This document shows positions 1,343 to 22,084 of a stretch of 43,997 nt of DNA, piece after piece. Position 1 is the first letter of the stretch. Each line of letters starts with the position of its first letter. The position numbers and the translations under genes were made by a program. The DNA comes from an uncultured bacterium (GTDB taxonomy: Bacteria; Patescibacteriota; Minisyncoccia; Phycocordibacterales; Phycocordibacteraceae). Where the stretch lies: contig CALUBY010000002.1 in the NCBI GenBank assembly GCA_943914435.1, forward strand, positions 1 through 43,997, read 5' to 3'. The notes beneath the pieces are model-generated. The model was not told the origin of the DNA and made no database searches. It saw nothing but the letters and a program-made list of their open reading frames with translations.

Positions 1343-1373
1343 ACGAGAGAGTATAACGCATCTCGTTATAGCC

Positions 1374-2630: not shown

Positions 2631-2661
2631 GTGTCTATCCTACGCGCTTAAAGGGGCAATT

Positions 2662-2684
2662 GAAAAGGCCCGCCGAAGCGGGCC
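2662..2684 (-). terminator. Intrinsic terminator after the 111-aa ORF
   Basis: Minus strand reads GGCCCGC-UUCG-GCGGGCC followed by UUUU, starting 5 nt after the stop codon. Confidence 0.75.
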
Positions 2685-2688
2685 CCAA

Positions 2689-3024
2689 CTACGCAGCAAC
2701 GGGTACCGAGCGGGCAGGTGTCGGGCAGTGTGCCCTGTCAGACAAGGCCGTGCGAAACCATGAGCAGAGATAGTTCGGCGCACAAGATCCGTTTACCCAC
2801 TCCTCATATTCTCGAGCCACTCGCATAATAGCGAATTCGGACGACATCGGCGCATCAATCGATTTGCAGTACAAAAACAAGAACAAGTTCTCGTCGCTGA
2901 TTGTCCGGTCGAAATCCGCAAACCTTGATGCGCAGTATTGCCGAAGACGAGGAATCATCTTCTTGCCCATCACTGAACTTCTTGTGAGCTTCGTACAGTC
3001 AAGATATATCTTCTTGCGACTCAT
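2689..3024 (-). CDS. Hypothetical Cys-containing 111-aa protein wedged between uvrA and uvrC
   Basis: A strong SD (AAGGAGGAAGAG) lies immediately upstream of the ATG and the gene has its own terminator. I recognise no motif. Confidence 0.6.
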   Translation of the reverse strand: MSRKKIYLDCTKLTRSSVMGKKMIPRLRQYCASRFADFDRTISDENLFLFLYCKSIDAPMSSEFAIMRVAREYEEWVNGSCAPNYLCSWFRTALSDRAHCPTPARSVPVAA

Positions 3025-3082
3025 CTCTTCCTCCTTGGAACAAGGTATCTAAAGCCTAAGAGTATCATGCTCCTCACTGGTT

Positions 3083-5761: not shown

Positions 5762-5801
5762 GGGTAGTGTTTGTATGGAAATGTCCTACCCGTGGCGGGG
5801 C

Positions 5802-5823
5802 AGGTGCACCTACTACTATACCA
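5802..5823 (-). promoter_or_regulatory. Putative uvrA promoter (extended -10 TGGTATAGT) with the 10-bp palindrome AGGTGCACCT at the predicted start site
   Basis: Minus strand reads GTGTGGTATAGTAGTAGGTGCACCTGCC. The -10 is at 5815-5820 and the palindrome at 5802-5811. Confidence 0.4.
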
Positions 5824-5876
5824 CACTTCCCCCCCCTTAAGAGGAGATGAAGAAAGGTCTCTTTGTAGGCCCGGAC

Positions 5877-6305
5877 TTACGCGGTAGCGGGTGGAACCGG
5901 TACTTCAACTGGCGCGGGTGCAGGTGCATTTGCCGCAAGAAGTCCTTCCATCTTCGCTACGATTTCCTCAATCGCAACTTCTGCCTTGATAAGGTAGTCA
6001 TTTGCACCCATCGACTTTGCCTTTTCAATATCTGCTGTTGCGCCGAGGTTTGATACCACTATCACGGGCACGTTCCGAAGCTCATCGGTGCGCGCACGAA
6101 TAGCCGCCAATACCTCAAAACCTCCCATGGTTGGAAGCATGAGATCAAGGAGAATGAGCACGGGCTTGTACTGATCAACAAGAGCAAGTGCTTCGTTACC
6201 ATCAGAGGCGTAGACCGTCTGATATTTTCCCGCAAGGGTGTGCCCTAAAAGATTCTTAAGAATTGGGTCGTCTTCTACGACGAGAATAGATGCGAGGTCA
6301 GCCAT
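5877..6305 (-). CDS. Stand-alone response-regulator receiver protein (CheY-like, no output domain)
   Basis: 142 aa with ILVVEDDP, LILLDLMLP (phospho-acceptor Asp) and DYLIK. The C-terminal tail is Ala/Pro-rich. Confidence 0.85.
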   Translation of the reverse strand: MADLASILVVEDDPILKNLLGHTLAGKYQTVYASDGNEALALVDQYKPVLILLDLMLPTMGGFEVLAAIRARTDELRNVPVIVVSNLGATADIEKAKSMGANDYLIKAEVAIEEIVAKMEGLLAANAPAPAPVEVPVPPATA

Positions 6306-6329
6306 ATGTAAAGTATCACCCTTCCTCTC

Positions 6330-7415
6330 TTATGAGGCAATAGGGAGAGAAAGCGTAAACGTGGTGCCCTGTGTTCCCTCGTTTGGACGGAACGAAAGGT
6401 CACCTCCGTGGTCTTTTGCAACGGTGCGCGCAATATAAAGACCCAGGCCATTTCCGCCGTTTTGCTTTGTAATAGCGTTTGGCGCTCGGTAGAAACGCTC
6501 AAAAATCTTGCCGCGGTCTTCAGGAGAGATGCCAATGCCGGTATCACGGACACGAACATACACCATACGCTCGCTCGTTACCTCTGTGGTGACCCGTACG
6601 GACCCTCCTGACGGTGTGTACCGAATAGCGTTCTCTATGAGATTGTTCAGTACCCAGCGAATACGTTCTTTATCAATATTTACCGCTGCACTCGCGGCAC
6701 CCGACTTCTCAAACACAAGAGACACTCCTGCTTCCCCTGCGGCAGCCTGGAAATCAACCGTTACCTCAGTAACCAGCTCATCAAGCTTTGCTGGCTTCAT
6801 ATCGTACTTATACTTTCCAGACTCAATACTCGATATATCAAGCAGAGTACCTACGACGGTCACTAGCTGGTGACTTTTCTCGGTTGCACTCGTAACCAGT
6901 GCCTTCTGGGTGTCGGTGAGCTGTTCCATCTGAAGTGCCTCAAGCGCCCAGCGAATACCCGTGAGAGGTGTGCGCAGCTGATGCGCGGCAGTTGAGATAA
7001 AGTCAGACTTAATGCGAGACACTTCCACGTCATGCTTGTGTACCTCCTCCACTCGTCCGGTGAACGATGTAAAGACCTCAACAAGCGCACGAACCTCTTT
7101 AGGTGCCCAGCCTGTTGCTGGAGTGGGTTTCTCACCCGTCTCTGCAAAGGTTTTCATGGCAAGCGTAATGTCGCGGACCGGCTTTGCAATATAGGTACCA
7201 ACGGCCAGGAACAGAATAACGAGAAGCCCGACCGACAAAAGGAGACTGGTTACGGAAGTAGCAACAACAATCAACGATAATTCAGCATTGTTTTCGATAC
7301 TTGAAAGTAGCGGCATGAGCTGTGACTGCAGGAAGAGTCCTGACACGAGAATCATGCCAATAGACAGGAGAAAGATACCCCCGAGGAGCGTCGCCATGAA
7401 CATGCGTATGGTCAT
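6330..7415 (-). CDS. Membrane sensor histidine kinase
   Basis: 361 aa with two N-terminal TM helices, a HAMP-like linker, H-box STAAHQLRTPLTGI, N-box LNNLIENAIRYT, G1 VRDTGIGI and G2 GGNGLGLYIA. Confidence 0.9.
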   Translation of the reverse strand: MTIRMFMATLLGGIFLLSIGMILVSGLFLQSQLMPLLSSIENNAELSLIVVATSVTSLLLSVGLLVILFLAVGTYIAKPVRDITLAMKTFAETGEKPTPATGWAPKEVRALVEVFTSFTGRVEEVHKHDVEVSRIKSDFISTAAHQLRTPLTGIRWALEALQMEQLTDTQKALVTSATEKSHQLVTVVGTLLDISSIESGKYKYDMKPAKLDELVTEVTVDFQAAAGEAGVSLVFEKSGAASAAVNIDKERIRWVLNNLIENAIRYTPSGGSVRVTTEVTSERMVYVRVRDTGIGISPEDRGKIFERFYRAPNAITKQNGGNGLGLYIARTVAKDHGGDLSFRPNEGTQGTTFTLSLPIAS

Positions 7416-7450
7416 AGGCGAATGGTATCACGCAACCGGAAGCCGTATGG

Positions 7451-9529
7451 CTACCGTCCCCTGCGCTTTGTAGGTGCTTTTTTAGCAACACGCGCCTTTT
7501 TTTCCGGCACCTCCTTGCCTTCAAGGGCATAAATCTCATCACGCAGTATTGCCGCCGTTTCAAAATCAAGAGCTTCAACCGCATCTGCCATTTGCTGACG
7601 CTTCTGCTTCATAAAGGCAGTCGGGTCTTCTTCGTAGAGCTTCGTATCAAGCTCAAGCAAGCTGCCCACCGTCTTTTGGTGCTCAGAGCGCATACTCTCG
7701 GCAATGTCTTTAATTTCCTTCTTAATGGTAAGAGGGGTAATGCCGTGCTTTGTGTTGTACGCAATTTGAATCTTTCGACGGCGTTCCGTCTCACCAATTG
7801 CTCGTTCCATAGAGCCGGTCATAACGTCGGCATAGAGAATCACCGTACCGAGCACATTACGTGCAGCACGTCCTATGGTCTGAATAAGAGACGTTTCGGA
7901 GCGAAGGAATCCTTCCTTGTCCGCGTCAAGAATGCCCACGAGCTCTACCTCCGGCAAATCGAGACCTTCACGAAGCAGGTTCACACCAACAAGCACATCA
8001 AACGTTCCTCGTCTAAATGCTGTCAGAATATCAATGCGATCGATAGTCTTTACGTCTGAGTGGAGGTACTCAGCTTTCATACCCTTCTCCTTAAGGAACT
8101 CCGAAAGGTCTTCTGCCATCTGCTTTGTGAGAGTCGTCGCGAGTGCGCGACCTCCCCGTTTGATAACGATTTCCGCTTCCTGAATGAAGTCAGCGACCTG
8201 TCCCTTATAATCACCATTCCCCACAATCGGCTTAATGGTGAGCTCAGGGTCAACGAGTCCTGTCGGACGAATAATCTGCTCCGCAACCTGCCCATCAGGC
8301 GGAACGCTGTGCTCTATTTCGTACTTGCCGGGGGTCGCTGATGTGTAGATAGTTTGGCCAATACGTTCTTCAAACTCATCAAACTTCAAAGGACGGTTGT
8401 CACGCGCAGACGGAAGACGGAACCCGTGCTCAACAAGCGTATCTTTACGTGAACGATCTCCTGCATACATACCACCCACCTGCGTCACGGTGACATGAGA
8501 CTCATCGATAACGGTTAGGAAGTCAGGCCTCCCATCTTTTGTGTGAGGGAAATACGAAAGAAGTGTGTGTGCAGCTTCTCCTGGTGCACGTCCATCAAAG
8601 TGACGTGAGTAATTCTCAATACCTGAGGTGTATCCCATCTCACGTATAAGCGCTAGGTCATGCTGTGTGCGACGCTTCAAGCGCTCGTGCTCAAGAACCT
8701 TTTCTTCACGCTTAAACACGGCAAGCTGCTCTTCGAGCTCGTTCTTTATGCTTTCAAGCGCGCGTGCGCGACCTTCCTCGTCCGTAACAAAGTGTTTGGC
8801 AGGGAAGACAAAGAGGGAATCGGGAGTACCCGTGAGCGCACGTGATACTGGATCAAGACACTCAATACGAGAGATGGTTTCCCCATCAAACAGAATGCGG
8901 TACACCACTCGTTCGTTTGTCGGCATGAGCTCAACTACGTTCCCTACGGCGCGAATCTTTCCGGGCTCAAGGTCGGCGTTTGTGCGCTCAAAATAAATAC
9001 CGATGAGCTTGCGGATGAGTGCCGCTCTATTCTCTTCTCCTCCCACCAAGAGTTTTACGTGACGCTTCTCGTAGTTTTCAGGAGACCCAAGACCATAAAT
9101 AGCAGACACGGACGCGACAATAATAACGTCTTTGCGAGTGAGGAGTGCCTGGGTTGCGGCATGACGGAGGCGATCAATTTCTGCGTTTATCTGCGCTTCT
9201 TTCTCGATAAACGTATCCGAGTGCGCAATATACGCCTCTGGCTGGTAGTAGTCGTAGTACGACACAAAATAGTGCACCGCGTTCTCCGGAAAGAACTCGC
9301 GATACTCCTGAGCAAGCTGGGCAGCCAGGGTCTTGTTATGCGCCATCACGAGCGTCGGCTTCCCCACGTTCTGAATAACGTTTGCAATGGTATAAGTTTT
9401 GCCTGAGCCGGTAACACCAAGCAGCGTTTGGTGGCGCATACCCTTCTTCACACCCTCGGTGAGCTTTTCTATAGCCCTTGGCTGATCGCCTGCAGGCGGA
9501 AAGGGGCTGTGCATCTTAAAAGTCGCCAT
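7451..9529 (-). CDS. uvrB: Excinuclease ABC subunit B
   Basis: 692 aa with helicase motifs GVTGSGKT and DESHVT, plus a C-terminal UVR domain (FETAAILRDEIYAL). Confidence 0.95.
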   Translation of the reverse strand: MATFKMHSPFPPAGDQPRAIEKLTEGVKKGMRHQTLLGVTGSGKTYTIANVIQNVGKPTLVMAHNKTLAAQLAQEYREFFPENAVHYFVSYYDYYQPEAYIAHSDTFIEKEAQINAEIDRLRHAATQALLTRKDVIIVASVSAIYGLGSPENYEKRHVKLLVGGEENRAALIRKLIGIYFERTNADLEPGKIRAVGNVVELMPTNERVVYRILFDGETISRIECLDPVSRALTGTPDSLFVFPAKHFVTDEEGRARALESIKNELEEQLAVFKREEKVLEHERLKRRTQHDLALIREMGYTSGIENYSRHFDGRAPGEAAHTLLSYFPHTKDGRPDFLTVIDESHVTVTQVGGMYAGDRSRKDTLVEHGFRLPSARDNRPLKFDEFEERIGQTIYTSATPGKYEIEHSVPPDGQVAEQIIRPTGLVDPELTIKPIVGNGDYKGQVADFIQEAEIVIKRGGRALATTLTKQMAEDLSEFLKEKGMKAEYLHSDVKTIDRIDILTAFRRGTFDVLVGVNLLREGLDLPEVELVGILDADKEGFLRSETSLIQTIGRAARNVLGTVILYADVMTGSMERAIGETERRRKIQIAYNTKHGITPLTIKKEIKDIAESMRSEHQKTVGSLLELDTKLYEEDPTAFMKQKRQQMADAVEALDFETAAILRDEIYALEGKEVPEKKARVAKKAPTKRRGR

Positions 9530-9598: not shown

Positions 9599-10828
9599 TT
9601 ATGCGTAGTAGTTCGCAAGGAAGTCGTCCTTATAAGCATCAAAGCGGTCCTCGAGCAGTGCCTCGCGTGCACCATCCACGAGCTGCAGAATAAATCCTAG
9701 GTTATGCATCGAGGCAATTACCTGTCCAAGAATTTCATTCGCACGAATAAGATGCGAGAGGTATGCACGCGTAAAAGTCTCTGTGCCAGGGACTGCGGTC
9801 ATTGGATCAAGAGGACCATAGTCACTCAAGTACTTTCCCTTCTTCATGTGTATAGGCCCTCTCTTCGTATAGATAGTGCCGTGTCTGCCAAGTCGTGTTG
9901 CCGCAACACAGTCAAACGTATCCATACCCTCCTGAATACCAAGAAGTAAATCCCCTGGCTCACCAATACCGAGGAAATGGCGAGGTTTGTCTTCAGGAAG
10001 ATGCTTCACGGCAGCCTGAAGCGCTCCCATCATATCTTCCTTGCTAAACGAGCCTCCAATACCAAAACCATCGAAGTCCATGCTTGCGATTTCTTTTGCG
10101 GACTCTTCGCGCAAATCCTCATAGCGCCCGCCCTGGATAATGCCAAAGATGCCTTGTCTTCGATTTGCTTCGATGTTCTGGCGATGCGCCTTAAGAGAAC
10201 GTTCGGCCCACTTGTGGGTGCGGTGCATTGCCTCTCTTTGATACTCATATGGCTCGGTTGGCGAAGTGCACTCATCAAACGCAAAGAACATGTCCGCCCC
10301 AAGCGCGTGCTGAATCTCAATGGAGCGCTCGGGGGTAAACCGATGCAAGGAACCGTCGTGATGTGAAGTGAACGTAACGCCCTCCTCATCAATCACGGCG
10401 AGCTGCCCATGCTGTGTGGCAAGTTCTTCATCAAATACCGCAACACCCTGTACACGATCTTCCTCTGATCGCGCCATCTCGTCACCACTCGCAATCTTTG
10501 TAATAGTCTTTCCAAATGCAGAACCGAGAGAAAATACCTGGAAGCCGCCCGAGTCGGTCATGGTAGGGCCGTTCCATCCCATAAACTTCCCCAGTCCGCC
10601 GCCATTCTGAACCACCTGTTCTCCGGGCTGCAGATACAGGTGATAGGTGTTAGCGAGTACCACCTGGGAGCCGAGTGCTACTAGCTGGTCAGGGAGGACA
10701 CCCTTCACGCCCGCCTTGGTTCCCACCGGAACGAACGCGGGAGTACGAATATCACCATGAGGCGTGTGAATTACCCCGGCACGTGCCATGCCGGATGTAG
10801 CTTCTGTCGTGAAGGAGATAGGTCTCAT
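9599..10828 (-). CDS. tgt: tRNA-guanine transglycosylase (queuine tRNA-ribosyltransferase)
   Basis: 409 aa with the Tgt pattern (TPAFVPVGT, TDSGGFQVFS, LGIGEP, FDCVAATR). Confidence 0.9.
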   Translation of the reverse strand: MRPISFTTEATSGMARAGVIHTPHGDIRTPAFVPVGTKAGVKGVLPDQLVALGSQVVLANTYHLYLQPGEQVVQNGGGLGKFMGWNGPTMTDSGGFQVFSLGSAFGKTITKIASGDEMARSEEDRVQGVAVFDEELATQHGQLAVIDEEGVTFTSHHDGSLHRFTPERSIEIQHALGADMFFAFDECTSPTEPYEYQREAMHRTHKWAERSLKAHRQNIEANRRQGIFGIIQGGRYEDLREESAKEIASMDFDGFGIGGSFSKEDMMGALQAAVKHLPEDKPRHFLGIGEPGDLLLGIQEGMDTFDCVAATRLGRHGTIYTKRGPIHMKKGKYLSDYGPLDPMTAVPGTETFTRAYLSHLIRANEILGQVIASMHNLGFILQLVDGAREALLEDRFDAYKDDFLANYYA

Positions 10829-10885
10829 CTAGATACCCTAACGGCATACCCTTTATGCCGCAAGACAGGAGCAGGGAGGGTGCTA

Positions 10886-10914
10886 TTGACAAATATTTCT
10901 ATTATGTCTATAAT
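10886..10914 (+). promoter_or_regulatory. Perfect sigma70 consensus promoter (TTGACA-17 nt-TATAAT)
   Basis: TTGACA at 10886-10891, a 17-nt spacer, TATAAT at 10909-10914. It lies 62 nt upstream of the lipoprotein ATG. AGGAG at 10962-10966. Confidence 0.7.
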
Positions 10915-10975
10915 CACCCCAGAAAGTCCTTTTCATCGCAATAGTGTGTTGACGAGGCTTTAGGAGTTTACCCCA

Positions 10976-11653
10976 ATGACCATGAACATCATGCGAGGGG
11001 TGACCCTCGCTATCGCTGGCGCTTGTATGTCCCTGAGCCTCTCGGCTTGCGGCACCACAAGCGGATTCCAAACCACCGACTACGGCACCACCGGACCAAT
11101 CACCATGCAGGAATCCTCGGTGTCCCACACCAGGAACTACATGGTCGACACCCTCGTCGGCTACGACGCCGACGGCCACCGGAACCCCTCGCGCGAACTG
11201 AAGATGGATGAATCCATCTTGGTCGCCGAAGCGGACCGGTACTGCGCCGTCAAGGCCAAGGAAGTCGAAGGACTGCTCGGCGAGTACGTCGGGAATGGCA
11301 CCATCTTCGGTGTCGTTGGCGCGATCGCCCAAGCGGCTGGCTCGCTCGGCGTTCCCGGAGCGGACATCATGTCCTATGCCTCTCTCGGTGGAGGAAGCTT
11401 CACCGGCAGCGGCCTCCTCACGACCCGGATGATGATCAAGCAGACCCTGGTCATCCTTCACTCTTCCTGCATGCAGGCTGAGGTGAAGTCCGACTCGCGC
11501 GGCCGCAACCTCGGCATCTATCCGGTTCTCATGGGCAAGGCAATTCGCCCAGGAGTGTCGAACGAGCGCTCGCCGGTCTCACAAGACCGGCAGAACGACC
11601 TCCGAGACGAGGAAGCGAGCAGCAACCTGCCGTTCACCCCGATTCCGATGTAG
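10976..11653 (+). CDS. Putative lipoprotein, compositionally foreign (GC-rich)
   Basis: 225 aa with a signal peptide and lipobox (LSLSAC). Codons end mostly in G/C. It is on the opposite strand to all its neighbours. The antisense 192-aa ORF is a typical high-GC shadow. Confidence 0.8.
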   Translation: MTMNIMRGVTLAIAGACMSLSLSACGTTSGFQTTDYGTTGPITMQESSVSHTRNYMVDTLVGYDADGHRNPSRELKMDESILVAEADRYCAVKAKEVEGLLGEYVGNGTIFGVVGAIAQAAGSLGVPGADIMSYASLGGGSFTGSGLLTTRMMIKQTLVILHSSCMQAEVKSDSRGRNLGIYPVLMGKAIRPGVSNERSPVSQDRQNDLRDEEASSNLPFTPIPM

Positions 11654-11677
11654 GTCGGCGTCACCACACTATGCGAA

Positions 11678-11707
11678 AGTCCCCCGACACCGTCGGGGGA
11701 CTTTTTC
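11678..11707 (+). terminator. Intrinsic terminator (possibly bidirectional)
   Basis: AGTCCCCCGAC-ACC-GTCGGGGGACT followed by TTTTTC. The reverse read is followed by UUUCG and could also end the FKBP operon. Confidence 0.8.
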
Positions 11708-11729
11708 TATACTCGCAATAGGTAGTGTA

Positions 11730-12251
11730 TTACTGAACACTCACAAGCTCCACTTCAAACACAAGAGTCGCGTTCGCAGGAATAACTCCTCCCACTGCCT
11801 GATCCCCATAGGCGAGGTGCGGCGGAATAACGAGGAGACGCTTTCCTCCCACTTTCATACCTGCGACTCCCTGATCCCACCCCTTAATCACCTGCCCAGC
11901 TCCTAGAGGGAACGTAAATGCTCCGCCGTGGTTTGCGGATGCGTCGAATACCGTTCCATCAGGAAGTGATCCGGTGTAATTCACCGAGACGGTAGAGCCT
12001 GGAACCGCTTCAGCGCCGGTTCCCACAACCTGGTCGGTGATGGTTAGCTCCGTTGGTAGTGGTTCGTTTGGATTAAGAGATAGGTCCATAGTTGATGATG
12101 ACGTAGTCAAACTAGTAGTAGTACCGACGCCGACGTCCATTACAGACGGTGTGCCCGTAAAAGAGCTTAGTATCGGAGTTCCAAGGGCAAGAAATCCGAG
12201 TCCTACGACTACGGCGAGCGCTACCGCGATTCCCGTTCCAGTGACATTCAT
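11730..12251 (-). CDS. Membrane-anchored FKBP-type peptidyl-prolyl isomerase
   Basis: 173 aa with an N-terminal TM helix, a Thr/Ser linker and an FKBP domain (VNYTGSLPDGTVFDAS, GQVIKGWDQGVAGMKVGGKR, LVFEVELV). Confidence 0.9.
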   Translation of the reverse strand: MNVTGTGIAVALAVVVGLGFLALGTPILSSFTGTPSVMDVGVGTTTSLTTSSSTMDLSLNPNEPLPTELTITDQVVGTGAEAVPGSTVSVNYTGSLPDGTVFDASANHGGAFTFPLGAGQVIKGWDQGVAGMKVGGKRLLVIPPHLAYGDQAVGGVIPANATLVFEVELVSVQ

Positions 12252-12253
12252 AG

Positions 12254-12568
12254 CTAATTGGTGTTAGTGCCGGTAGCCACAAGTATATCATCCGTGAGTT
12301 CCTTGATGGTATCGAGTACGGCCTGGTCTGCACCTGGAACGTTTTGTTCAAGGAAAGCCTCCACCGCTTCTTCGTCAGCGTCAGAATCCATAAGTGCCGT
12401 AAACGCCTCGCTTGTTGCTTCGTCCATCTGTTCCACCATTCGCAGCATGCTTCCTTTAAAGACGAGTTCGTTTATTTCAAGAAGAACGGCTTCTTGTTCT
12501 TCAGCCGGAAGGTCAGATATCTCAAGTGCATCAAGAAGACTCGTGTCTTTTGGAGTAAGTGAATTCAT
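12254..12568 (-). CDS. Small acidic helical protein (recalls the CPR-typical DUF5663 family; unverified)
   Basis: 104 aa, very acidic (LDALEISDLPAEEQEAVLLEINELV). It has 2-3 nt gaps to both neighbours. Confidence 0.7.
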   Translation of the reverse strand: MNSLTPKDTSLLDALEISDLPAEEQEAVLLEINELVFKGSMLRMVEQMDEATSEAFTALMDSDADEEAVEAFLEQNVPGADQAVLDTIKELTDDILVATGTNTN

Positions 12569-12571
12569 ACG

Positions 12572-14971
12572 CTAAAGAGTTGGGGGTACGGGCTCATAAT
12601 TATCAGGGTGTGGTATAGGGGGCACAGGAAGAGGAAGTCCTCCTTCTGACACATACGGTACCACCATACCAGTACCCTGAGCACTTGCGCCATCAAGGAT
12701 CAGTCCACGCACCGTACGCTCAAGACCGCCAAGTACACTTATGCGATCCTCAACGTAATACGCGGGCGTGCCCGGATGTGTGCGCGCGAAGTCACGTGCC
12801 ATCTCATAGTTCTGTTCGTTACCTCCACCTCCCTGTGCAAAGTACGTGTCCCCTACTTTCACCATACTTGGCTGAGTAAGATCAACGCCATGCGCATTCA
12901 ATGTGCTCTCTTGAGGAACATCTTCAGATGAGCCTGACACGATAGGATCCGATGCAGTAGAGGTGGTGTGTTCAGGAACCGTTGATGCAGGTGGCTGTTC
13001 TGACGCGGAAACCGGTTCAGAAGTATTTCGGAGTGTCTCCTCAGGAATGTGCGGCGTGCTGTCAGGAGTAGGCTCGAGTGGAATACTCTTAACTTCCGTA
13101 TCTGACATGGTTTGAATATCTCCTTCTGCATCAAGCGACTCGGGAGAAATATCTGGCGTAATTGATGCACGGCTATTCTCCGTGATAAATTCGGCGGCAG
13201 CGCTATTCTGTATATCAGGGGCACTCGGAAGAGGTTCAGGATCAGCAGACAAGGCCTCTGGCACAACCGACGTAGGAGTCGCGCCTTTAAGATACGACTC
13301 ATACGAAATACTCGTGTCGTACGCATCCGGCGCCATTGGGGGTATCTCTTGCCCACCACTGAGTACCTGCTGCATGTTTAGATCAGCGGTTATCTTTGCC
13401 TGTTCTTCTAGTGAAGGAGAAGAAATTTCAGGCGAGGTCACGGGAGAAGCTTCTGAAGGTGCGCTCACCTCGGGAGAAGGAGTAGTGCTCACAACGCTTT
13501 CAACACTCTGCTTTTCTACTACTGCCTCCGGCGAAGGAGCAGCGGGAGGAACTTCCTGAGGGGCTACTGCAGGTGTTTCCTCTACAACTACCTTGAGTTC
13601 CTCGCTTTCGACTGCAGGCATATTTGATTCAGCAGGAGATACGGGTGGAGTGGGCAGTAAATCTGTGCTTCCCGCTACCGTAGCGGCTTCCTGTATCACC
13701 GCGAAGTCTGCAAGCACTGCAGCAGAGCCCGCACCCACACCCATTGCAACGAGTGCTTTTGTAATGGCTTTTCTTTTTTGGAACACTGCCTCATCAGTCT
13801 CTTTAACTAACTTCTCGCGTTTCGTATCAAGCGTACGAAGTGAATCAACATCAAGCTCAGTATTGATTGCCTTCATGTTGGTACGGTGCAAGGATTCCTT
13901 TGCCGCTTGCTGAGCCTTCCTTCCAAAGAATTCAAACGCCGCACCAGTCGTCTCACCAGCAGCTGCACCAAGCACTACACCCCCCAAAGAACGGGCAAAT
14001 TTATAAGTGCCAACTCCCGCAAGAGCCGCAAGCCCAAGCGGGGCCGTAACGCCAGCCGCTCCGAGAGCAGCAGCACCTCCCGAGATAAGGACCGCACTCG
14101 CTGCAGCTCTAATCACGCGAGCACCCATCTTTCCATACTTCTTATCAAGACCAGCGTTTACTTTTCCTGACCACGTAAGTGCCTTATCAAAAGCATTGCG
14201 CTTACGCCCACTCAAAGCCTCAAGGCGAGCTGCGTTCTTCTTCTCAGCAAGAGGGCGCACCACTTCCCGGAAGCGTAAATATCCGGCCACGCGCTCTGCA
14301 CGAGTCTCATTCTTAACAATCGCACGTCGCATAAATATATCGAAACTAATCTCTTCACCGCTCTCTGTGCGCTCAAGTGCCCCTGCCTGCTTTAGTTCCT
14401 CGTACTTTGCACGCGTACGCTCTTCAAGAGTCTTTGTACGCTCAGCAACTTTTTCAGAAACATTCTGAGTGAGTGCATTTGCGTAAGCAACACGTGACTC
14501 GTCGTACTCACGACGAAGTGCTTCTACTTTCTTTTCTTCATTTTGGATATTTCCTCGTCGAAGGAGGAGACGATTAATAATCGTTCTGCGTCGCTCTAAA
14601 TCTTTGTAAGCGGAAAGGTAAGCAGCTTCCTTTTCCTTAAGAGCAGCGCGTTCAGGGGCGGCAGCAGACTCTTTTGGCGCGTCAGTAATTTCACCTGCAG
14701 GTGGTGAGTCTGGTGTTCTTCCCGCGCGCGCTTTCAACTGGCGCAATATCTCCTGCCTTGCCTCTCTAGGTGTATCAATATCTTCATTAATGCGCAGCGC
14801 GTGCGCATTCTCAGGAACCACGACAAGTTCTTCTGAAGGAGCATCTTCTTCAGAAGAGATTGGCTCACTTTCTCCTCCCTCTAGGGAAGAAATAGTTTCA
14901 TTTCCCTCAGGAGCTTCAATGGCATCCTGCTTCTTAACGTCATCGGGATATGGAGGACCTTCTTTTGGCAT
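12572..14971 (-). CDS. Large membrane protein: N-terminal coiled coil, Gly/Ala-rich TM helices, long Pro/Ser/Glu/Thr disordered region, small C-terminal globular domain
   Basis: 799-aa ORF starting 4 nt after the stop of the ATPase gene. TM candidates are ARVIRAAASAVLISGGAAALGAAGV, LGLAALAGVGTYKF..GGVVLGAAAG and ALVAMGVGAGSAAVLADFAVI. Confidence 0.8.
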   Translation of the reverse strand: MPKEGPPYPDDVKKQDAIEAPEGNETISSLEGGESEPISSEEDAPSEELVVVPENAHALRINEDIDTPREARQEILRQLKARAGRTPDSPPAGEITDAPKESAAAPERAALKEKEAAYLSAYKDLERRRTIINRLLLRRGNIQNEEKKVEALRREYDESRVAYANALTQNVSEKVAERTKTLEERTRAKYEELKQAGALERTESGEEISFDIFMRRAIVKNETRAERVAGYLRFREVVRPLAEKKNAARLEALSGRKRNAFDKALTWSGKVNAGLDKKYGKMGARVIRAAASAVLISGGAAALGAAGVTAPLGLAALAGVGTYKFARSLGGVVLGAAAGETTGAAFEFFGRKAQQAAKESLHRTNMKAINTELDVDSLRTLDTKREKLVKETDEAVFQKRKAITKALVAMGVGAGSAAVLADFAVIQEAATVAGSTDLLPTPPVSPAESNMPAVESEELKVVVEETPAVAPQEVPPAAPSPEAVVEKQSVESVVSTTPSPEVSAPSEASPVTSPEISSPSLEEQAKITADLNMQQVLSGGQEIPPMAPDAYDTSISYESYLKGATPTSVVPEALSADPEPLPSAPDIQNSAAAEFITENSRASITPDISPESLDAEGDIQTMSDTEVKSIPLEPTPDSTPHIPEETLRNTSEPVSASEQPPASTVPEHTTSTASDPIVSGSSEDVPQESTLNAHGVDLTQPSMVKVGDTYFAQGGGGNEQNYEMARDFARTHPGTPAYYVEDRISVLGGLERTVRGLILDGASAQGTGMVVPYVSEGGLPLPVPPIPHPDNYEPVPPTL

Positions 14972-14975
14972 AGAA

Positions 14976-17714
14976 TTAAGATAGGTAACGCGCTTTTATA
15001 TGTGCTTCAACTGTAGCACGGTCACGTCCATACGTAAGATAGGAAAGTTCACGTAAGTCATCCACCTGATCGAGGTTCCCTTCATTCAAGCTCAGGGTAT
15101 GAATGTTGAAGGGTTTTTGCGGAACTCCCCCTGCAAGCATGCGCAGGTATGCGTTTCGGTTTTCAATATTCGTGAAGTCTGCGGCAGTAAACGTTGGCTC
15201 AAAGAGTTTGCCAAAAAACTCTCCGTCTTCCTGCCCCACACGAAACACCGCCATTGACCCCACGTTACCAAATATCGCATCACGAATCTTTTCATCAATC
15301 TGTGCCAGGTACTGGTGAGCAATAGTAAGCGATAGCTTGTACTTGCGAGCCTCGGAGAGAATGCCAGGAATTGAGTTCGTTGTTATGTTCTGGAACTCAT
15401 CGATATAGAGGTAAAACGGCGGGAAGTCAGCGCGGGGATCATCTGCACGCGAGAGCGCTGCCATAAAGAGCTTGCCCACAATAATGAGTCCAAGCAGGTT
15501 TGCATTACGCTCACCAAGCCGGCCCTTCGAGAGGTTCACGAGCAGAATCTTCTTGCTATCAATAACATCACGGAAGTTAAATGAGCTTTCCTGCTGACCA
15601 ATGATAGGACGCATGAAGTCGCTACCCGTAAATTCATCAAACTTGTTTGTGATGTACGGCACAATATTCTGTAGCGACGCTTCCCCCTCTGCTTTTGTCG
15701 CAATCTCCTGCCAGAACTGATTCACAATAGGATTATTGCTTCGCGCAAGCTTGTAGTTACGGAACTCAGCATTCGAGAGCACGCGACCAATATCCATGAG
15801 CGTTGATCCGGACGCAGGGTCCTCCATAACAAGCTGGGTAGCATTGCGGAAGTACTGCTCGAATGCCGGGCCCATAGACTCAGGTACGTCGCCATAAAGC
15901 TGACGGAATATAGCGAGCATTTCGTTCACAATGAACGTCTTCTGCTCAGGACGCTTCGGATCGTACTCAAGCATATTGAGACCAAACGGACGGTCAATGT
16001 TTGCGGGGTCAAAGTAAATGACATCCTCATACCGTTCAGGAGGCACGGTCGCAAGCACATCGAGTATGTCGTTGCCGTGGGGATCAATAAAACAAACTCC
16101 CTTTCCGTCTTTAATATCTTGCTCAATAAGCGTACGCATAAAGCCCGACTTTCCGGTTCCCGTTTGGCCAATGACATAAAGGTGTCGAAGGCGGTCTTGA
16201 TCTGCGAGCTTTATGGTCGCTGTTCCTCCACGATAGGTGTTTGTGCCAAGCGTAATGCCCTCTTTGGGAAGCCCGACCGGCGCTGCAGCGCCTGCGAAAC
16301 GCGCTTGCTTCAGGTTTGGAGTCGATTCTATGCCTGACGGTGGGAAATGATAGAGCGTCGTAAGCTCACGAAGTGATAGGGGGAGAACAGTGCTTGAGCG
16401 ATACAAACGGAACGTGTAGTCCCGCAGAAGCTGCTTCAGCGTTGCCTTACTTGGTCGACGAAACTCAATGCGGTTTCCAAGCGTGTTATCAAACTGATTA
16501 AACGAAGATTCGAGCTCACCAAGAAGCTGGTGGGTGCGGGCATGGTCACGCGTGGATACCGCAAGACGAATATTTGTCGCAACAATCGGTGCAGCGATTT
16601 TCTTCTCAACCATAGCAATCGCCTTCTCGTCGACGGTTTGCGATGCGGGCAGTTTCTTTTTGGTGAAGAGGAGTCCCGCTGCCTCGCGCGCAAGGTCTCC
16701 CACAAAAGTCTCAGGCAGATTAAACGCCCGTGAACGGTGTTCGCCATCACGAAGTGCATGAAGCACCTTACGATAATGGTCAATGTAATGATTGCCTTCA
16801 GGCTTAAAGATGATCTGAAGCGCAGCACCTTCGCCCTCCGTCGCAACTTTTGCGAATGCGTTGAGGATCGAATTAATCGGGTCGTAATCAAAGTCCTGAT
16901 AATCCTTCAACGGAAGCATTGGCTTATCCTTAAGCTCAGCGACCGAAGCGAGCTGAATACCGTCTTCAAGGAAAATATTGTAATCGTTTGGCTGTGGAGT
17001 CAGATGCGCATGAGGAAATATGGCAAGAAGCTGGTTTTGAAAGAGGTCGCGCTTCGTATTTGGTACAGCCGCATAAAACATAAGGCTCGACTCGTCTACC
17101 GGCATCGCAAGCTCAAGGGTGCAGTACGCAGGCTCTCCTCGTTCAGGATGACCAACGGCGAGCATGCCAGAGTAAAACTGCTCCATAGAGGAGATAAGTT
17201 CTTTCAGGGTGCGTGCTCGCGACTCTTCTGAAGTGTTTGTCTCAGGAAGAGAAATCTCATACAGGGTCATATGAAGCGCCTTCCACTCAGGCTGATTCTC
17301 CGACAAGCCCTTTGGTTGCATACCAACTACCAAATACTGCACCAGAAAGCGATGGAAATCGTCTTCAAGGTGCGCATTATTCAGTTTTGCAAGAATAGTG
17401 AACGCGTTATGAATACCCTTCTCCTCCATGACGCCTCGCAGCTCAGCAATCGTCGCGTCATTTTGCTCGGGATCAAGATTGAGCGTCAGTGTTTCTGCAT
17501 GTGCCGCTGCTTCTTTATCAGATATTTGATAGTGAGGGGCGAGCACGTGTTCTGGGCCCGTCATGCGGTGATGAAGAACACGCTCGTGCGCAATGTCAGC
17601 AAGTGGTGTCTCGCGACGTATAGAAGCGAGCTCGGCTTCTTTCTGTGCTATTTGTGCACGCAGGTACGCAAGCTCGTCCTGAGGCGATTCAATCGGTCGT
17701 ATCGGTCCCTCCAT
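14976..17714 (-). CDS. TraD/VirD4 (type IV coupling protein)-like P-loop ATPase with a roughly 500-aa unassigned soluble N-terminal region
   Basis: 912 aa. Walker A is VIGQTGTGKSGF (about residues 514-525) and Walker B is FYLYIDEFQ (about 767-775). The C-terminal part is TraD/TraG-like (SLTIAHQYLAQIDEKIRDAIFGNVGSMAVFRVG). No TM helix is seen. Confidence 0.8.
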   Translation of the reverse strand: MEGPIRPIESPQDELAYLRAQIAQKEAELASIRRETPLADIAHERVLHHRMTGPEHVLAPHYQISDKEAAAHAETLTLNLDPEQNDATIAELRGVMEEKGIHNAFTILAKLNNAHLEDDFHRFLVQYLVVGMQPKGLSENQPEWKALHMTLYEISLPETNTSEESRARTLKELISSMEQFYSGMLAVGHPERGEPAYCTLELAMPVDESSLMFYAAVPNTKRDLFQNQLLAIFPHAHLTPQPNDYNIFLEDGIQLASVAELKDKPMLPLKDYQDFDYDPINSILNAFAKVATEGEGAALQIIFKPEGNHYIDHYRKVLHALRDGEHRSRAFNLPETFVGDLAREAAGLLFTKKKLPASQTVDEKAIAMVEKKIAAPIVATNIRLAVSTRDHARTHQLLGELESSFNQFDNTLGNRIEFRRPSKATLKQLLRDYTFRLYRSSTVLPLSLRELTTLYHFPPSGIESTPNLKQARFAGAAAPVGLPKEGITLGTNTYRGGTATIKLADQDRLRHLYVIGQTGTGKSGFMRTLIEQDIKDGKGVCFIDPHGNDILDVLATVPPERYEDVIYFDPANIDRPFGLNMLEYDPKRPEQKTFIVNEMLAIFRQLYGDVPESMGPAFEQYFRNATQLVMEDPASGSTLMDIGRVLSNAEFRNYKLARSNNPIVNQFWQEIATKAEGEASLQNIVPYITNKFDEFTGSDFMRPIIGQQESSFNFRDVIDSKKILLVNLSKGRLGERNANLLGLIIVGKLFMAALSRADDPRADFPPFYLYIDEFQNITTNSIPGILSEARKYKLSLTIAHQYLAQIDEKIRDAIFGNVGSMAVFRVGQEDGEFFGKLFEPTFTAADFTNIENRNAYLRMLAGGVPQKPFNIHTLSLNEGNLDQVDDLRELSYLTYGRDRATVEAHIKARYLS

Positions 17715-17721
17715 ACCTAGT

Positions 17722-17727
17722 AGTATA
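17722..17727 (-). promoter_or_regulatory. -10 box TATACT placed 7 nt before the ATG (leaderless mRNA candidate)
   Basis: Minus strand reads TATACT-ACTAGGT-ATG. There is no SD. Confidence 0.35.
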
Positions 17728-17764: not shown

Positions 17765-17796
17765 TAAAAACGGCGACGTGTAAACACGCCGCCGTT
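17765..17796 (-). terminator. Intrinsic terminator after the purC-like gene
   Basis: Minus strand reads AACGGCGGCGUG-UUUA-CACGUCGCCGUU followed by UUUUUAU. Confidence 0.8.
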
Positions 17797-17818
17797 TGAA
17801 ATATGCACCGTTAACTCT

Positions 17819-20378: not shown

Positions 20379-21401
20379 CTAGCGCGTGCGGAATGGTGAG
20401 AAAAAGCGGAAGGCAGGAGAACCAGAGCCACGCTCTGGAGTTGATGTTGCAATCTCAATCTCCGTAGTGGTTGTTGCGGTAGTAGTGGCGGTTGTTGTGG
20501 CGGTGGTCGTTGCACTACTCATGACACTCATAAGCATCATCTCCTCAGGCTGCTTCGTTAAAAAGAGTACCGGGGACGCAGTGTTTTCAGACACCTCAGA
20601 GTCGTCATGTGAGCGCATCGTGGCAAGAATAGATACCTCACCCTCTTCACTTTCTGCGAGCACATCAAGAGCGAGTGCTGAATCAAGGCGCTCACGTGTT
20701 GTTGCAAGCGACCGTGACTTCTCCCTCACCTGAGCAGCAAACGTATTGGCGGGAGTTTCAGATACTGCAATCATCGTCCGCTCAACCGAGTCCGAAAGAG
20801 AGGTATCGACCGCAGCAAGGGCAATTTCATTTACTTTTGCCGTGAGTTTTTGTTCAAGGTCACTTCTGACCGCGAGCGATACAGCGATATCACCCTTTGC
20901 TTCAAGGGTACCCGTCTCTTTTGCAAGAGCATCGACATGCTCATTAAATCGCGCAGCAAGCTCGACAGCGTTCTTCTCATCGAGCTTTCCTGCCGATGAC
21001 AACGTTACGGCTTCATCCACTCGGCGAGACGCGTAGCGTGCAGCGAGTTCAGCACGTCCTTCGGTAGAGGTGGTGAGCGCAAGAGCAATAGGCTCAGCCA
21101 CCGCAACCTTCATGGGATATAAAATGTCGCCCGGCACCGCCTTCTCACTCGCAAAACTTGCCTGAGTGCCTCCGGCAACGATAAGAACGAGCGCAAGTGC
21201 ACCAGCGTACAGGCTTCGTGAGCGGATCCAGAGTATAGAAAAAAGAGGAGTGGACACTCGTGAGCGTGTCTGCGGAAGCACATGGAGATCAGTGTATGCC
21301 GAGAGCTCTTCGCGCATACGCTCGCGCGTAGTAGCAGAAAGAACCACGCTTTTGAACGCGTGCAGCACATCAATAGGATTACGTTTCGGTGAATTATTCA
21401 T
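20379..21401 (-). CDS. Putative anti-sigma factor / membrane protein (recalls DUF5667-type proteins; unverified)
   Basis: 340 aa. It overlaps the sigma gene stop by 8 nt. It has a single TM helix (LYAGALALVLIVAGG), a helical extracytoplasmic part and an (ATTT)4 tail. Confidence 0.65.
   Translation of the reverse strand: MNNSPKRNPIDVLHAFKSVVLSATTRERMREELSAYTDLHVLPQTRSRVSTPLFSILWIRSRSLYAGALALVLIVAGGTQASFASEKAVPGDILYPMKVAVAEPIALALTTSTEGRAELAARYASRRVDEAVTLSSAGKLDEKNAVELAARFNEHVDALAKETGTLEAKGDIAVSLAVRSDLEQKLTAKVNEIALAAVDTSLSDSVERTMIAVSETPANTFAAQVREKSRSLATTRERLDSALALDVLAESEEGEVSILATMRSHDDSEVSENTASPVLFLTKQPEEMMLMSVMSSATTTATTTATTTATTTTEIEIATSTPERGSGSPAFRFFSPFRTR
20463..20513 (-). repeat. Imperfect 12-bp tandem repeat x4 encoding (Ala-Thr-Thr-Thr)4
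   Basis: GCAACGACCACC GCCACAACAACC GCCACTACTACC GCAACAACCACT. The variation between units is synonymous. Confidence 0.8.
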
Positions 21402-21900
21402 GGGTATGCATGAGAGTGCGGACTTTCTTTAGGGCGCGATTGAGACGTACCGACACGACGTTGGTGGATTCTCCGGTAACCTGAGCAATCTCCTTTGGCG
21501 TAAACCCTTCAACGTACCGCATCATAATAACTTCACGCGAGGGCTCATCAAGAGTTGAAATGACGTTGAGTGCTTCTTTCATTTCAGCCTCACGCGTTAC
21601 GTCAGGTGCGTCTTCGCCCCTAAACTCAATACCAGTATCGGTTATCTCATCGAGAGACGATTCTCTCTTTTTTCGGTACCAGTCAATCACAAGGTTCCGG
21701 GCAATAGTATAAAGAAGCGCTCGCTCGCTTCGCATAGAAGTACCCTCCCGCAGTGCCTGCCAGAAGCGCGTAAACACCTCCTGGGTAATGTCCTCAGCAA
21801 GCTCTTTCGTACTTACCTTAAACACACAGAATCTATAGATATCGTCCGCGTAGGCGTCGTATATCTGTAGAAAATAGGCCTTTGTTTCCTCGTGGTCCAT
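21394..21900 (-). CDS. ECF-type sigma-70 family RNA polymerase sigma factor
   Basis: Region 2 (DITQEVFTRFWQAL, LLYTIARNLVIDWYRKK) and region 4 (EIAQVTGESTNVVSVRLNRALKKV) are present. The start was moved to MDHEETKAYF, because the 52 upstream codons of the track ORF look non-coding. Confidence 0.85.
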   Translation of the reverse strand: MDHEETKAYFLQIYDAYADDIYRFCVFKVSTKELAEDITQEVFTRFWQALREGTSMRSERALLYTIARNLVIDWYRKKRESSLDEITDTGIEFRGEDAPDVTREAEMKEALNVISTLDEPSREVIMMRYVEGFTPKEIAQVTGESTNVVSVRLNRALKKVRTLMHTHE

Positions 21901-22043
21901 AAAGTATGACGTACCGAAAGACAGACTCTTAGCACACCCGTGTGAGGTGTGCGTTGGGGACCCGTTGTCTTCCCGTCCTTCCATACTCGCACATGCCCTT
22001 GGGTCGAGCCAACCCACCCACCTGGACAAGAGAATGTGGACCC

Positions 22044-22084
22044 AAAAAAAGAACACCCGCGACCTGTCGGTCGCGGGTGTTCTT
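22044..22084 (-). terminator. Intrinsic terminator
   Basis: Minus strand reads GAACACCCGCGACC-GACA-GGUCGCGGGUGUUC followed by UUUUUUU. Confidence 0.85.

Follow-up and report, generated by a model that had tools for sequence, protein, structure and literature searches.

What a conjugation-type coupling ATPase does in a bacterium that encodes no secretion apparatus beside it is the question raised by a four-gene locus of an uncultured member of the Patescibacteria, a host-dependent group that accounts for much of the diversity among bacteria. The locus (positions 11730-17727, minus strand) lies in a 43,997-nucleotide stretch of DNA (contig CALUBY010000002.1 of assembly GCA_943914435.1; hereafter the window, 44 kb, the stretch covered by every negative result given for the window), and its open reading frames (ORFs) encode, in order, an ATPase homologous to type IV coupling proteins (T4CPs), a fast-evolving 799-aa protein (here the big protein), a small acidic protein of family DUF5663, and an FKBP-type prolyl isomerase. 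We put at about one half the probability that the ATPase, a helical domain at its N-terminus (p141), DUF5663, and the big protein form a Patescibacteria-specific module that is built around a domesticated T4CP, resembles a coupling complex, and serves these bacteria's type IV secretion system (T4SS).

The wider setting comes from a published study of 3,035 Patescibacteria genomes (PMC12102498), in the relevant passages of which VirB4 is reported from 2,417 genomes (~80%), the VirB4-type T4SS is chromosomal and mostly without a relaxase (relaxases in 103/3,035 genomes), and the T4SS is so far the sole such machine shown to be essential for the host-dependent lifestyle in a cultivated member of the group. 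The coupling-protein passages of the same study count 5,713 T4CP homologues of VirD4 in 2,918 genomes (~96%), of which 148 are near virB4 (PMC12102498). Orphan T4CP homologues in Patescibacteria, thousands of them without an assigned role, are thus already published, and the window ATPase almost certainly belongs among them. A first-pass annotation of the window, made from the sequence alone, had proposed an undescribed system here; this may hold for the set of partner genes, which we did not find described in the papers searched, and does not for the orphan ATPase itself, which is already on record (PMC12102498). The same annotation had described four coupled ORFs under a possible shared leaderless promoter, the first product an unanchored P-loop ATPase of the T4CP type, and no other T4SS, conjugation, or pilus gene nearby. 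All of these observations stood: the coordinates and the intergenic gaps of 4, 3, and 2 nt were confirmed, with terminator hairpins on either side, the promoter element recurs in six relatives, and no T4SS, relaxase, or pilus gene was found in the window.

The assignment of the ATPase rests on its C-terminal motor. Pfam families TraG-D_C (25.8 bits, cut-off 22) and DUF87 (33.7 bits, cut-off 23.2, the match being confined to the P-loop stretch at residues 507-547) both scored above threshold, the Walker A and B motifs are intact, with invariance judged in a 15-sequence family alignment (A1; Table 1), and a family profile compared with the PDB gave three sequence matches, to TrwB (E 2.5e-6) and DotL only. 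NCBIfam returned partial matches only (SXT_TraD at 36 bits versus a cut-off of 366, and the CD1115 VirD4-like family at 33 versus 250), and the VirB4 families CagE_TrbE_VirB and AAA_10 were absent among the ATPase Pfam matches at E ≤ 0.1. The N-terminal half is covered by DUF8128 (PF26449) in precomputed Pfam annotation, as in all 120 homologues listed. In an AlphaFold model of the whole ATPase (predicted local distance difference test, pLDDT, 82), the best full-length Foldseek match was VirB4/TrwK (E 2e-15, ~900 columns), while the match to TrwB covered the C-terminal motor only (template-modelling score 0.67-0.70, ~410-460 columns). Modelled alone (residues 140-485, pLDDT 84), DUF8128 matched 14 TrwK/VirB4 chains at E ≤ 1e-4 and probability 1.0, with the next match at E 7e-3, and thus a fold like the VirB4 N-terminal domain is predicted to precede a T4CP-like motor. 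Within the motor part of the model, six helices (residues 590-705) sit between Walker A and Walker B, and the TrwB alignment spans about the whole 420-aa chain; this comparison of the putative helical insert (~590-705) with TrwB is one of overall fold. As modelled, the ATPase is three-part, with p141, the VirB4-like DUF8128, and the T4CP motor in succession. The label "soluble TraD/VirD4-like" given in the first pass is therefore right about the T4CP motor and wrong in picturing a simple soluble TraD, as p141 and DUF8128 are also present.

Like TrwB, VirD4, and TraD (PDB 1e9r, 1gki), the window ATPase has the motor fold with intact Walker A and B; unlike them, it lacks an N-terminal transmembrane (TM) domain and any linkage to a relaxase or T4SS, and its motor is preceded by a ~340-aa domain resembling the VirB4 N-terminal domain and a ~140-aa helical domain. 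With VirB4/TrwK (PDB 7o42, 8rtd) it shares an overall plan in which a RecA-like ATPase comes after an alpha/beta domain at the N-terminus, but its motor is closer to T4CPs by sequence, the match between DUF8128 and VirB4 is structural only, and no VirB3, VirB6, or VirB8 gene stands beside it. Separately, identity as a HerA helicase or a HerA-based defence is not supported (of the full HerA plan, a HAS barrel plus an ATPase, DUF87 matches the P-loop stretch only; PADLOC HerA matches weak and partial, no NurA or other partner genes), and membership of a defence system in general was rejected (PADLOC partial matches only, to mad8 at E 1.9e-12, HerA, and LeoBC, with no partner genes).

The N-terminal domain and the missing anchor are best understood across relatives. 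Among the GTDB species representatives, 596 candidate stretches were confirmed as ATPase relatives, and 80 loci were kept, nearly all titled as metagenome-assembled genomes (MAGs) of the Patescibacteria group. Short-form ATPases (~790-840 aa) have one N-terminal TM helix and are preceded by a separate gene for p141, a protein of ~141 aa; long-form ATPases (~910-930 aa), the window protein included, have no TM helix, and in the window protein the N-terminus carries no hydrophobic helix and the sole hydrophobic stretch (737-758) is inside the ATPase domain. A hidden Markov model (HMM) built solely from 16 separate small p141 proteins matches the N-terminal ~130 residues of 42 long ATPases, the homology resting on a conserved helical motif of ~55 residues. 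p141 is fused to the ATPase in 42 of the 80 loci and a separate gene in 19; it has no Pfam match and nothing meaningful in a PDB profile search. To judge from these alignments, the window lineage has lost the TM helix, and the small partner p141 now occupies the ATPase N-terminus.

As for origin, the ATPase family is very large (>100 proteins 70-90% identical; 5,266 clusters at 50% identity with E < 1e-30) and, going by these searches, essentially Patescibacterial. Outside Patescibacteria, tblastn found proteins 23-28% identical on plasmids of Bacillus, Streptomycetaceae, Staphylococcus, haloarchaea, and Sulfolobus. On one B. subtilis and one Embleya plasmid, this gene holds the T4CP position and adjoins genes for PrgI/TcpE, a replication-relaxation protein, and a VirB4-like ATPase distinct from it. 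The DUF8128 HMM matches these two plasmid T4CPs (E 4e-35 in B. subtilis, 1.5e-13 in Embleya), so the window ATPase descends from this monoderm coupling-protein subfamily; DUF8128-type conjugative T4CPs are a genuine but little-described one. A 913-aa "DUF87 domain-containing protein" (B. subtilis, NZ_OX419568.1) and an 812-aa T4CP (Embleya, NZ_CP108778.1) have in common with the window ATPase both DUF8128 and the T4CP P-loop motor, at 23-28% identity over ~70%. Unlike these plasmid proteins, which have relaxase, PrgI/TcpE, and VirB4-like genes adjacent, the window ATPase is chromosomal with none of them nearby, and it has in addition the p141 N-domain and is linked to genes for the big protein and DUF5663. 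In the conjugative plasmid loci, HMMs of DUF5663, p141, and the big-protein core found no matches. An origin of the window locus in a plasmid, an integrative and conjugative element (ICE), or a phage was rejected on flat GC content and skew, housekeeping neighbours, and distant tRNAs, and is further disfavoured by the identity of at most 28% to plasmid and phage ATPase relatives. ATPases ~22% identical were also seen in SPO1-like Bacillus phages (Goe9, MT601270.1; SPO1 gp27.4, FJ230960.1) and in phage G (gp156, JN638751.1), and they align over ATPase residues ~145-906, that is, DUF8128 plus motor; hence DUF8128-type ATPases occur in large lytic phages as well.

We call the Patescibacterial T4CP domesticated because of its chromosomal housekeeping context, its 5,266 clusters, its placement in the spc operon of many relatives, and the lack of any VirB4-like gene near it (a phmmer search of limited sensitivity, for which two VirB4-like proteins from plasmids served as queries, found none within 10 kb in the 80 loci; likewise no relaxase or T4SS gene was found near these loci). 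In ~21 Paceibacteria loci (including L009, L012, L016, L020-L022, L024, L025, L027, L041, L067, and L077, with the ATPase at ~10001-12700 in each), the ATPase gene follows map at the end of the spc operon (L15-SecY-Adk-Map-ATPase), and downstream come ndk, a gene for a small protein with two to three TM segments, and one of the beta-CASP (RNase J-like) type. For an ATPase derived from conjugation, such a housekeeping position is unusual.

Several further observations concern the family at large. MAGs with short-form ATPases carry the labels Bdellovibrionales, Gammaproteobacteria, or Saccharibacteria (L070, L074, and several more, namely L058, L061, L063, L071, and L073); these are probably mislabels from automated binning, and the gene content resembles that of Paceibacteria/Moraniibacteria. 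TM-anchored members (P0185, P0189, P0194, P0195, P0197, P0202, P0204, P0205, P0208, P0209) have C-terminal tails of 400-1,200 aa, which are of low complexity, mostly Pro/Ala-rich, and without a Pfam match, and end in the motif KL(A/S)KGE(V/I)(F/Y)VDExGNV(I/V)(I/V)GE; homology of this motif (KGEVFVDExGNVIIGE) to the start of the C-terminal domain of the big protein was rejected (best E of the motif HMM 0.2). Small membrane proteins encoded beside the ATPase in other lineages were considered as hidden VirB2, VirB3, or VirB6 and proved to be GtrA, bPH_2, DUF6008, and PMT_2 proteins instead.

The partners of the ATPase emerge from gene order. Neighbourhood conservation, the check proposed with the first-pass annotation, was run, and the four genes were found syntenic in many other genomes; its own alternative outcomes, an ordinary plasmid or ICE T4CP with the apparatus nearby or a lack of synteny elsewhere, were not what we found. 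The order ATPase-big-DUF5663-FKBP recurs in L001/L002 (a relative of Parcubacteria C7867-004), L004, L006, L007, L031, and L047, in all six contigs reached from DUF5663 homologues 30-36% identical to that of the window, and in every close relative sampled (ATPase 59-79% identical), and ATPase-big-DUF5663 is kept without FKBP in L026, L038, L053, and L074. Gaps within the block stay at 1-30 nt, while the flanks differ (sortase/CARDB insertions, other upstream genes). A permuted order, big-DUF5663-p141-ATPase with a TM helix, is found in L058, L061, L063, and L071, in entirely different surroundings and with an ATPase only ~42% identical to that of the window, and L062 departs from this permuted order only in an additional gene that separates DUF5663 from p141; over all 80 loci, 16 show linkage of DUF5663 and the ATPase. 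Since the linkage has outlasted both permutation and p141 fusion or fission across a divergence to ~42% identity, we take this as good evidence, by comparison of genomes, for a functional module in which the ATPase cooperates with p141, DUF5663, and the big protein. What the analysis shows is the homology, the architecture of the domains, the structure of the operon, a synteny both conserved and permuted, and evolution at unequal rates, the last being visible in the identity of each product to its window counterpart (ATPase 59-79%, FKBP 51-72%, DUF5663 30-57%, and big 22-35% in partial alignments). The first pass had also suggested that the big protein supplies the anchor that the ATPase lacks; this cannot be its sole role, because deeper relatives keep big and DUF5663 despite an ATPase with a TM helix of its own.

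Membership is far weaker for the FKBP. An FKBP_C domain and N-terminal hydrophobic residues 1-33, a membrane or signal anchor, agree with the anchored prolyl isomerase described at first, but its place in the system did not hold up: it is near the ATPase in 9 of the 80 loci, all in the close clade, and in L003 it directly follows the ATPase with the middle two genes absent. Because of these counts and of L003, we regard FKBP as a weakly attached and probably lineage-specific addition in a Kaiserbacteria-like clade. The small acidic 104-aa product of the first pass is assigned to DUF5663, a family of ~100 aa without a signal peptide; a profile search found 389 proteins, and among the 120 listed nearly all carry PF18908.

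The big protein is the most divergent of the four, with 7 detectable homologues among 5.8 billion proteins. Residues 101-285 are basic (41% charged, net charge +13), Pro/Gly-poor, and probably helical, whereas residues 431-690 are acidic and P/S/T-rich (net charge -38), with two Gly/Ala-rich hydrophobic regions in between (Table 1). The charge asymmetry (+13 in the N-part and -38 in the C-part), read by the positive-inside rule, therefore fits an N-in/C-out topology, which the protein would adopt if it is inserted in the membrane. Conservation is concentrated in the central core (residues ~100-430, hydrophobic segments included) and in the C-terminal domain, whose motif N.HG..I...P..Y....G.....GG...ER...A..Y...HPG has no relative in Pfam or PDB profile searches. 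Lengths in the family range from 584 to 1,260 aa (855-1,022 aa with one TM segment in the permuted order; 1,064 aa in L062), and its members are nearly unalignable by BLAST; profile-profile comparison (hhalign) joined the window group to the permuted group (96.4%) and to the L053/L026 group (95%), and joined two close-clade groups via the C-terminal domain (98.5%).

How these parts might work together can be set out as a model, in which we infer the hexamer, the physical contacts, the topology, the T4SS link, and the cargo. Having descended from DUF8128-type T4CPs of monoderm conjugative elements, the ATPase would have lost its single N-terminal TM helix and been fused to p141, elsewhere encoded separately just upstream. 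With its Walker A/B motor intact, it most likely assembles into an ATP-driven hexamer on the cytoplasmic side of the membrane. The big protein, with a basic N-part in the cytoplasm and a low-complexity acidic C-part that ends in a small globular domain, would dock this anchor-less motor at the membrane and may itself be a client, DUF5663, likewise cytoplasmic, and the p141 domain may act as adaptor and receptor, and the membrane-tethered FKBP would fold the extracytoplasmic proline-rich part of the big protein. Such an assembly would parallel the one that DotL forms with a membrane partner and small acidic adaptors, and protein cargo would pass from the motor to the Patescibacterial T4SS, whose genes lie elsewhere in the genome. 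As the T4SS is common and T4CP homologues are mostly encoded elsewhere (coupling-protein passages of PMC12102498), the simplest model is that the module serves the T4SS. By analogy, the module shares with the Dot/Icm coupling complex (DotL-DotM-DotN-IcmS-IcmW-LvgA; PDB 6sz9) a motor, a membrane partner, and small acidic adaptors whose genes lie with or close to that of the motor; unlike in Dot/Icm, DUF5663 is not significantly related to IcmS/IcmW, nor the big protein to DotM, and the resemblance is a lead and not a test.

A number of points weigh against this model. The link between module and T4SS is circumstantial. In the coupling-protein passages of the published study, the T4CP homologue of Ca. 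Southlakia epibionticum is not essential while other T4SS genes are, and genomes with T4CP homologues (2,918) outnumber those with VirB4 (2,417), so that an autonomous function is possible (PMC12102498). Most long-form loci, which are those of the spc context, lack big and DUF5663 genes within 10 kb, and the two partners must therefore be encoded elsewhere there or not be universal. Downstream tgt and uvrB are also kept syntenic in the close clade, and hence the four-gene conservation is perhaps partly inheritance. For DUF5663, Pfam similarity to IcmW (E 0.046), CesT (E 0.072), and SdhE was not significant, and its PDB profile matches are engineered Protein-A-like helical repeats only. For the big protein, the first pass had pictured a membrane protein with a cytoplasmic coiled coil; hydrophobic segments were seen, though only moderately hydrophobic (Kyte-Doolittle 1.7-1.85), and a crude test of heptad (3.5-residue) periodicity gave no signal of a coiled coil, which leaves that picture plausible.

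Among other readings, one that we advance tentatively is that p141, the ATPase, DUF5663, and the hypervariable protein are an undescribed four-component system that exports, inserts, or displays the hypervariable protein, with or without a VirB4-type T4SS. A proposal that follows the first pass, namely that the ATPase hexamer and the big protein form a self-contained, envelope-spanning export or uptake device with no VirB4-type T4SS at all, draws on the Southlakia result and the surplus of T4CP over VirB4 genomes already described (PMC12102498). It would also accommodate the lack of T4SS genes in the window and within 10 kb in the 80 loci, the conserved linkage to a membrane protein, and the acquisition by the ATPase of a domain like the VirB4 N-terminal one, which in VirB4 contacts membrane components. 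Yet the big protein has few, weakly hydrophobic segments, unlike polytopic channels such as VirB6, ComEC, or SecY, the DUF8128 plasmid T4CPs coexist with a separate VirB4, so that possession of DUF8128 does not replace VirB4, and to our knowledge no T4CP works without a channel; we hold an autonomous translocase to be rather unlikely.

The rate at which the big protein evolves suggests instead that it could be cargo, i.e., a translocated hypervariable effector or adhesin that inserts in membranes or sits at the surface, with DUF5663 as its chaperone and p141 as a receptor. Its partial identity of 22-35% against 59-79% for the ATPase, its few homologues, its variable length, its conserved C-terminal domain, and the small acidic helical protein always encoded immediately downstream would all suit such a role, and so would its moderate Gly/Ala-rich hydrophobic segments, which are typical of membrane effectors exported by type III secretion systems and T4SSs. 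However, no secretion signal was recognised in the big protein, DUF5663 lacks significant similarity to known chaperones, and the best-conserved part is the central core with its hydrophobic region, which fits a structural role equally; with these points we judge the cargo-plus-chaperone proposal unlikely, too.

Less likely still are a motor for DNA and mere inertia of gene order. T4CPs ancestrally move DNA, the ATPase falls within the FtsK/HerA/T4CP superfamily, its high conservation and spc-operon placement in many lineages suggest a core function, and dprA and topA lie in the same window, which together might indicate an FtsK/HerA-like translocase for chromosome segregation, DNA uptake, or DNA export. 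But FtsK_SpoIIIE stays below threshold (18.2 versus 24 bits, over residues 503-530 only) and no gamma domain was found, no relaxase, ComEC, or nuclease was found nearby, and the acidic and membrane partners do not suggest DNA handling. Relaxases are also rare in Patescibacteria (103/3,035 genomes in the passages cited; PMC12102498), and altogether we consider a DNA motor very unlikely. That the genes are neighbours by descent alone (FKBP at least, possibly all four) is the least credible of these readings, since the synteny of tgt and uvrB, the 9/80 FKBP loci with L003 lacking the middle genes, and the position after map in most other lineages are outweighed by big-DUF5663 standing beside p141-ATPase in another order and different surroundings at ~42% ATPase identity, by p141 being alternately fused to or encoded beside the ATPase, and by 1-30-nt gaps kept while the flanks gain sortase and CARDB genes. 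For three of the four genes, the evidence already points towards an enrichment of big-DUF5663 beside the ATPase across lineages.

Returning to the module around a domesticated T4CP, what the locus adds is a testable context for orphan T4CP homologues, in the form of a domain architecture and a Rosetta-stone fusion with p141, together with two partner families (DUF5663, which has a DUF name only, and the big protein, which like p141 is without annotation). The T4CP, VirD4, and coupling-protein passages of PMC12102498 describe no p141 fusion, DUF8128 fold, TM loss, or partner genes. Full-text literature searches on DUF8128 and DUF5663 found no paper, and in the literature searched we did not find described the three-part architecture, the likeness of DUF8128 to the VirB4 N-terminal domain, p141 fusion and fission, the TM loss, or the permutable linkage of DUF5663 and a hypervariable protein to the ATPase. 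The candidate client, the big protein, evolves like a host-interaction factor, and as it diverges so fast, host attachment or host range in these episymbionts could depend in part on it. If the module does deliver or display this hypervariable protein, machinery derived from conjugation would be linked to host recognition, and DUF8128, p141, and DUF5663 would serve as metagenome markers for the system.

The transcription unit itself is sharply bounded (Table 1). A predicted hairpin, the terminator of upstream purC, marks the 5′ boundary of the operon, and a bidirectional hairpin separates the FKBP gene from a convergent lipoprotein-like ORF (10976-11653); inside the unit, matches that resemble terminators are about as many as chance would give (5 found versus 5.2 expected). 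A generic promoter and terminator scan missed both flanking hairpins and the -10 box, all of which were recovered by folding and comparison; the TATACT box was not listed by the -35/-10 scan because it has no good -35. TATACT precedes the called ATG in six relatives (L001, L085-L089) whose intergenic DNA is otherwise unlike. The spacing is 7 nt in four of them and 8 nt in L001; in L087 it is 2 nt, but another ATG lies in frame downstream of the called one. At 7 nt there is no space for a Shine-Dalgarno or other ribosome-binding site, and the conserved box without such room therefore makes a single leaderless transcript of the four genes a well-supported reading.

Table 1. Positions in the window of the four genes, their predicted domains and motifs, and the flanking signals
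Feature	Coordinates	Strand	Evidence
FKBP-type prolyl isomerase, 173 aa, last operon gene	11730..12251	-	FKBP_C 120.2 bits (cut-off 21.1), residues 81-170
DUF5663 protein, 104 aa, acidic, helical, pI 4.05	12254..12568	-	PF18908 25.1 bits vs cut-off 23.7
Big protein, 799 aa, fast-evolving	12572..14971	-	
Big residues 691-799, conserved C-terminal domain of ~110 aa	12575..12901	-	Alignment A4
Big residues 402-430, second Gly/Ala-rich hydrophobic segment	13682..13768	-	Kyte-Doolittle maximum 1.85
Big residues 286-352, first Gly/Ala-rich hydrophobic region, possible helical hairpin	13916..14116	-	Kyte-Doolittle maximum 1.7
ATPase, 912 aa, DUF8128-type T4CP homologue without TM anchor	14976..17714	-	
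ATPase residues ~485-912, T4CP-like nucleotide-binding domain	14979..16262	-	TrwB profile, Foldseek, TraG-D_C
Walker B YLYIDEFQ, residues 768-775	15390..15413	-	L769, D772, E773 invariant
Walker A GQTGTGKS, residues 516-523	16146..16169	-	G516, T518, G519, G521, K522 invariant
ATPase residues ~145-480, DUF8128 (PF26449), predicted fold like VirB4 N-terminal domain	16275..17282	-	AlphaFold 2 (AF2) model and Foldseek
ATPase residues 1-137, helical p141 domain	17304..17714	-	HMM match residues 12-137, E 5e-9
TATACT, -10-like box, putative leaderless promoter	17722..17727	-	7 nt before ATPase ATG
Terminator hairpin of upstream purC	17768..17797	-	13-bp stem, -22 kcal/mol, z -4.7, then UUUUUAU
Bidirectional terminator hairpin, FKBP gene/convergent lipoprotein-like ORF	11676..11704	both	-26.5 kcal/mol (minus), -25.8 kcal/mol (plus), z ~-4.2 to -4.6

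The surroundings are largely housekeeping genes (ddl, uvrC, uvrA, a two-component pair, uvrB, tgt, purC, serS, dnaX, dus, dprA, topA), and the window also encodes an extracytoplasmic function (ECF) sigma factor and a DUF5667 protein. The ORF convergent with the operon (225 aa, plus strand) resembles a lipoprotein at its N-terminus, with the lipobox-like LSLSAC, and is without a Pfam match; L001 has a counterpart of 217 aa in a similar position. The excision-repair genes uvrC (1374-2630), uvrA (3083-5761), and uvrB (7451-9529) lie on the same strand within 9 kb (368-9529), with a response regulator/histidine kinase pair (5877-7415) between uvrA and uvrB. Two genes upstream of the operon, a 109-aa protein with four TM segments belongs to Phage_holin_4_2 (PF04020; 18772-19101, minus strand), a family also encoded near the ATPase in L085 (1-244) and L087 (663-998); its proximity is probably conserved gene order with no functional link. 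The gene for the ECF-type sigma factor (21394-22056, minus strand) overlaps by 8 nt that for the 340-aa DUF5667 protein (20379-21401, minus strand), a probable sigma/anti-sigma pair, and the DUF5667 protein has a TM segment and, near its C-terminus, a (TTTA)n-like Thr/Ala repeat, SSATTTATTTATTTATTTT, whose length could be variable.

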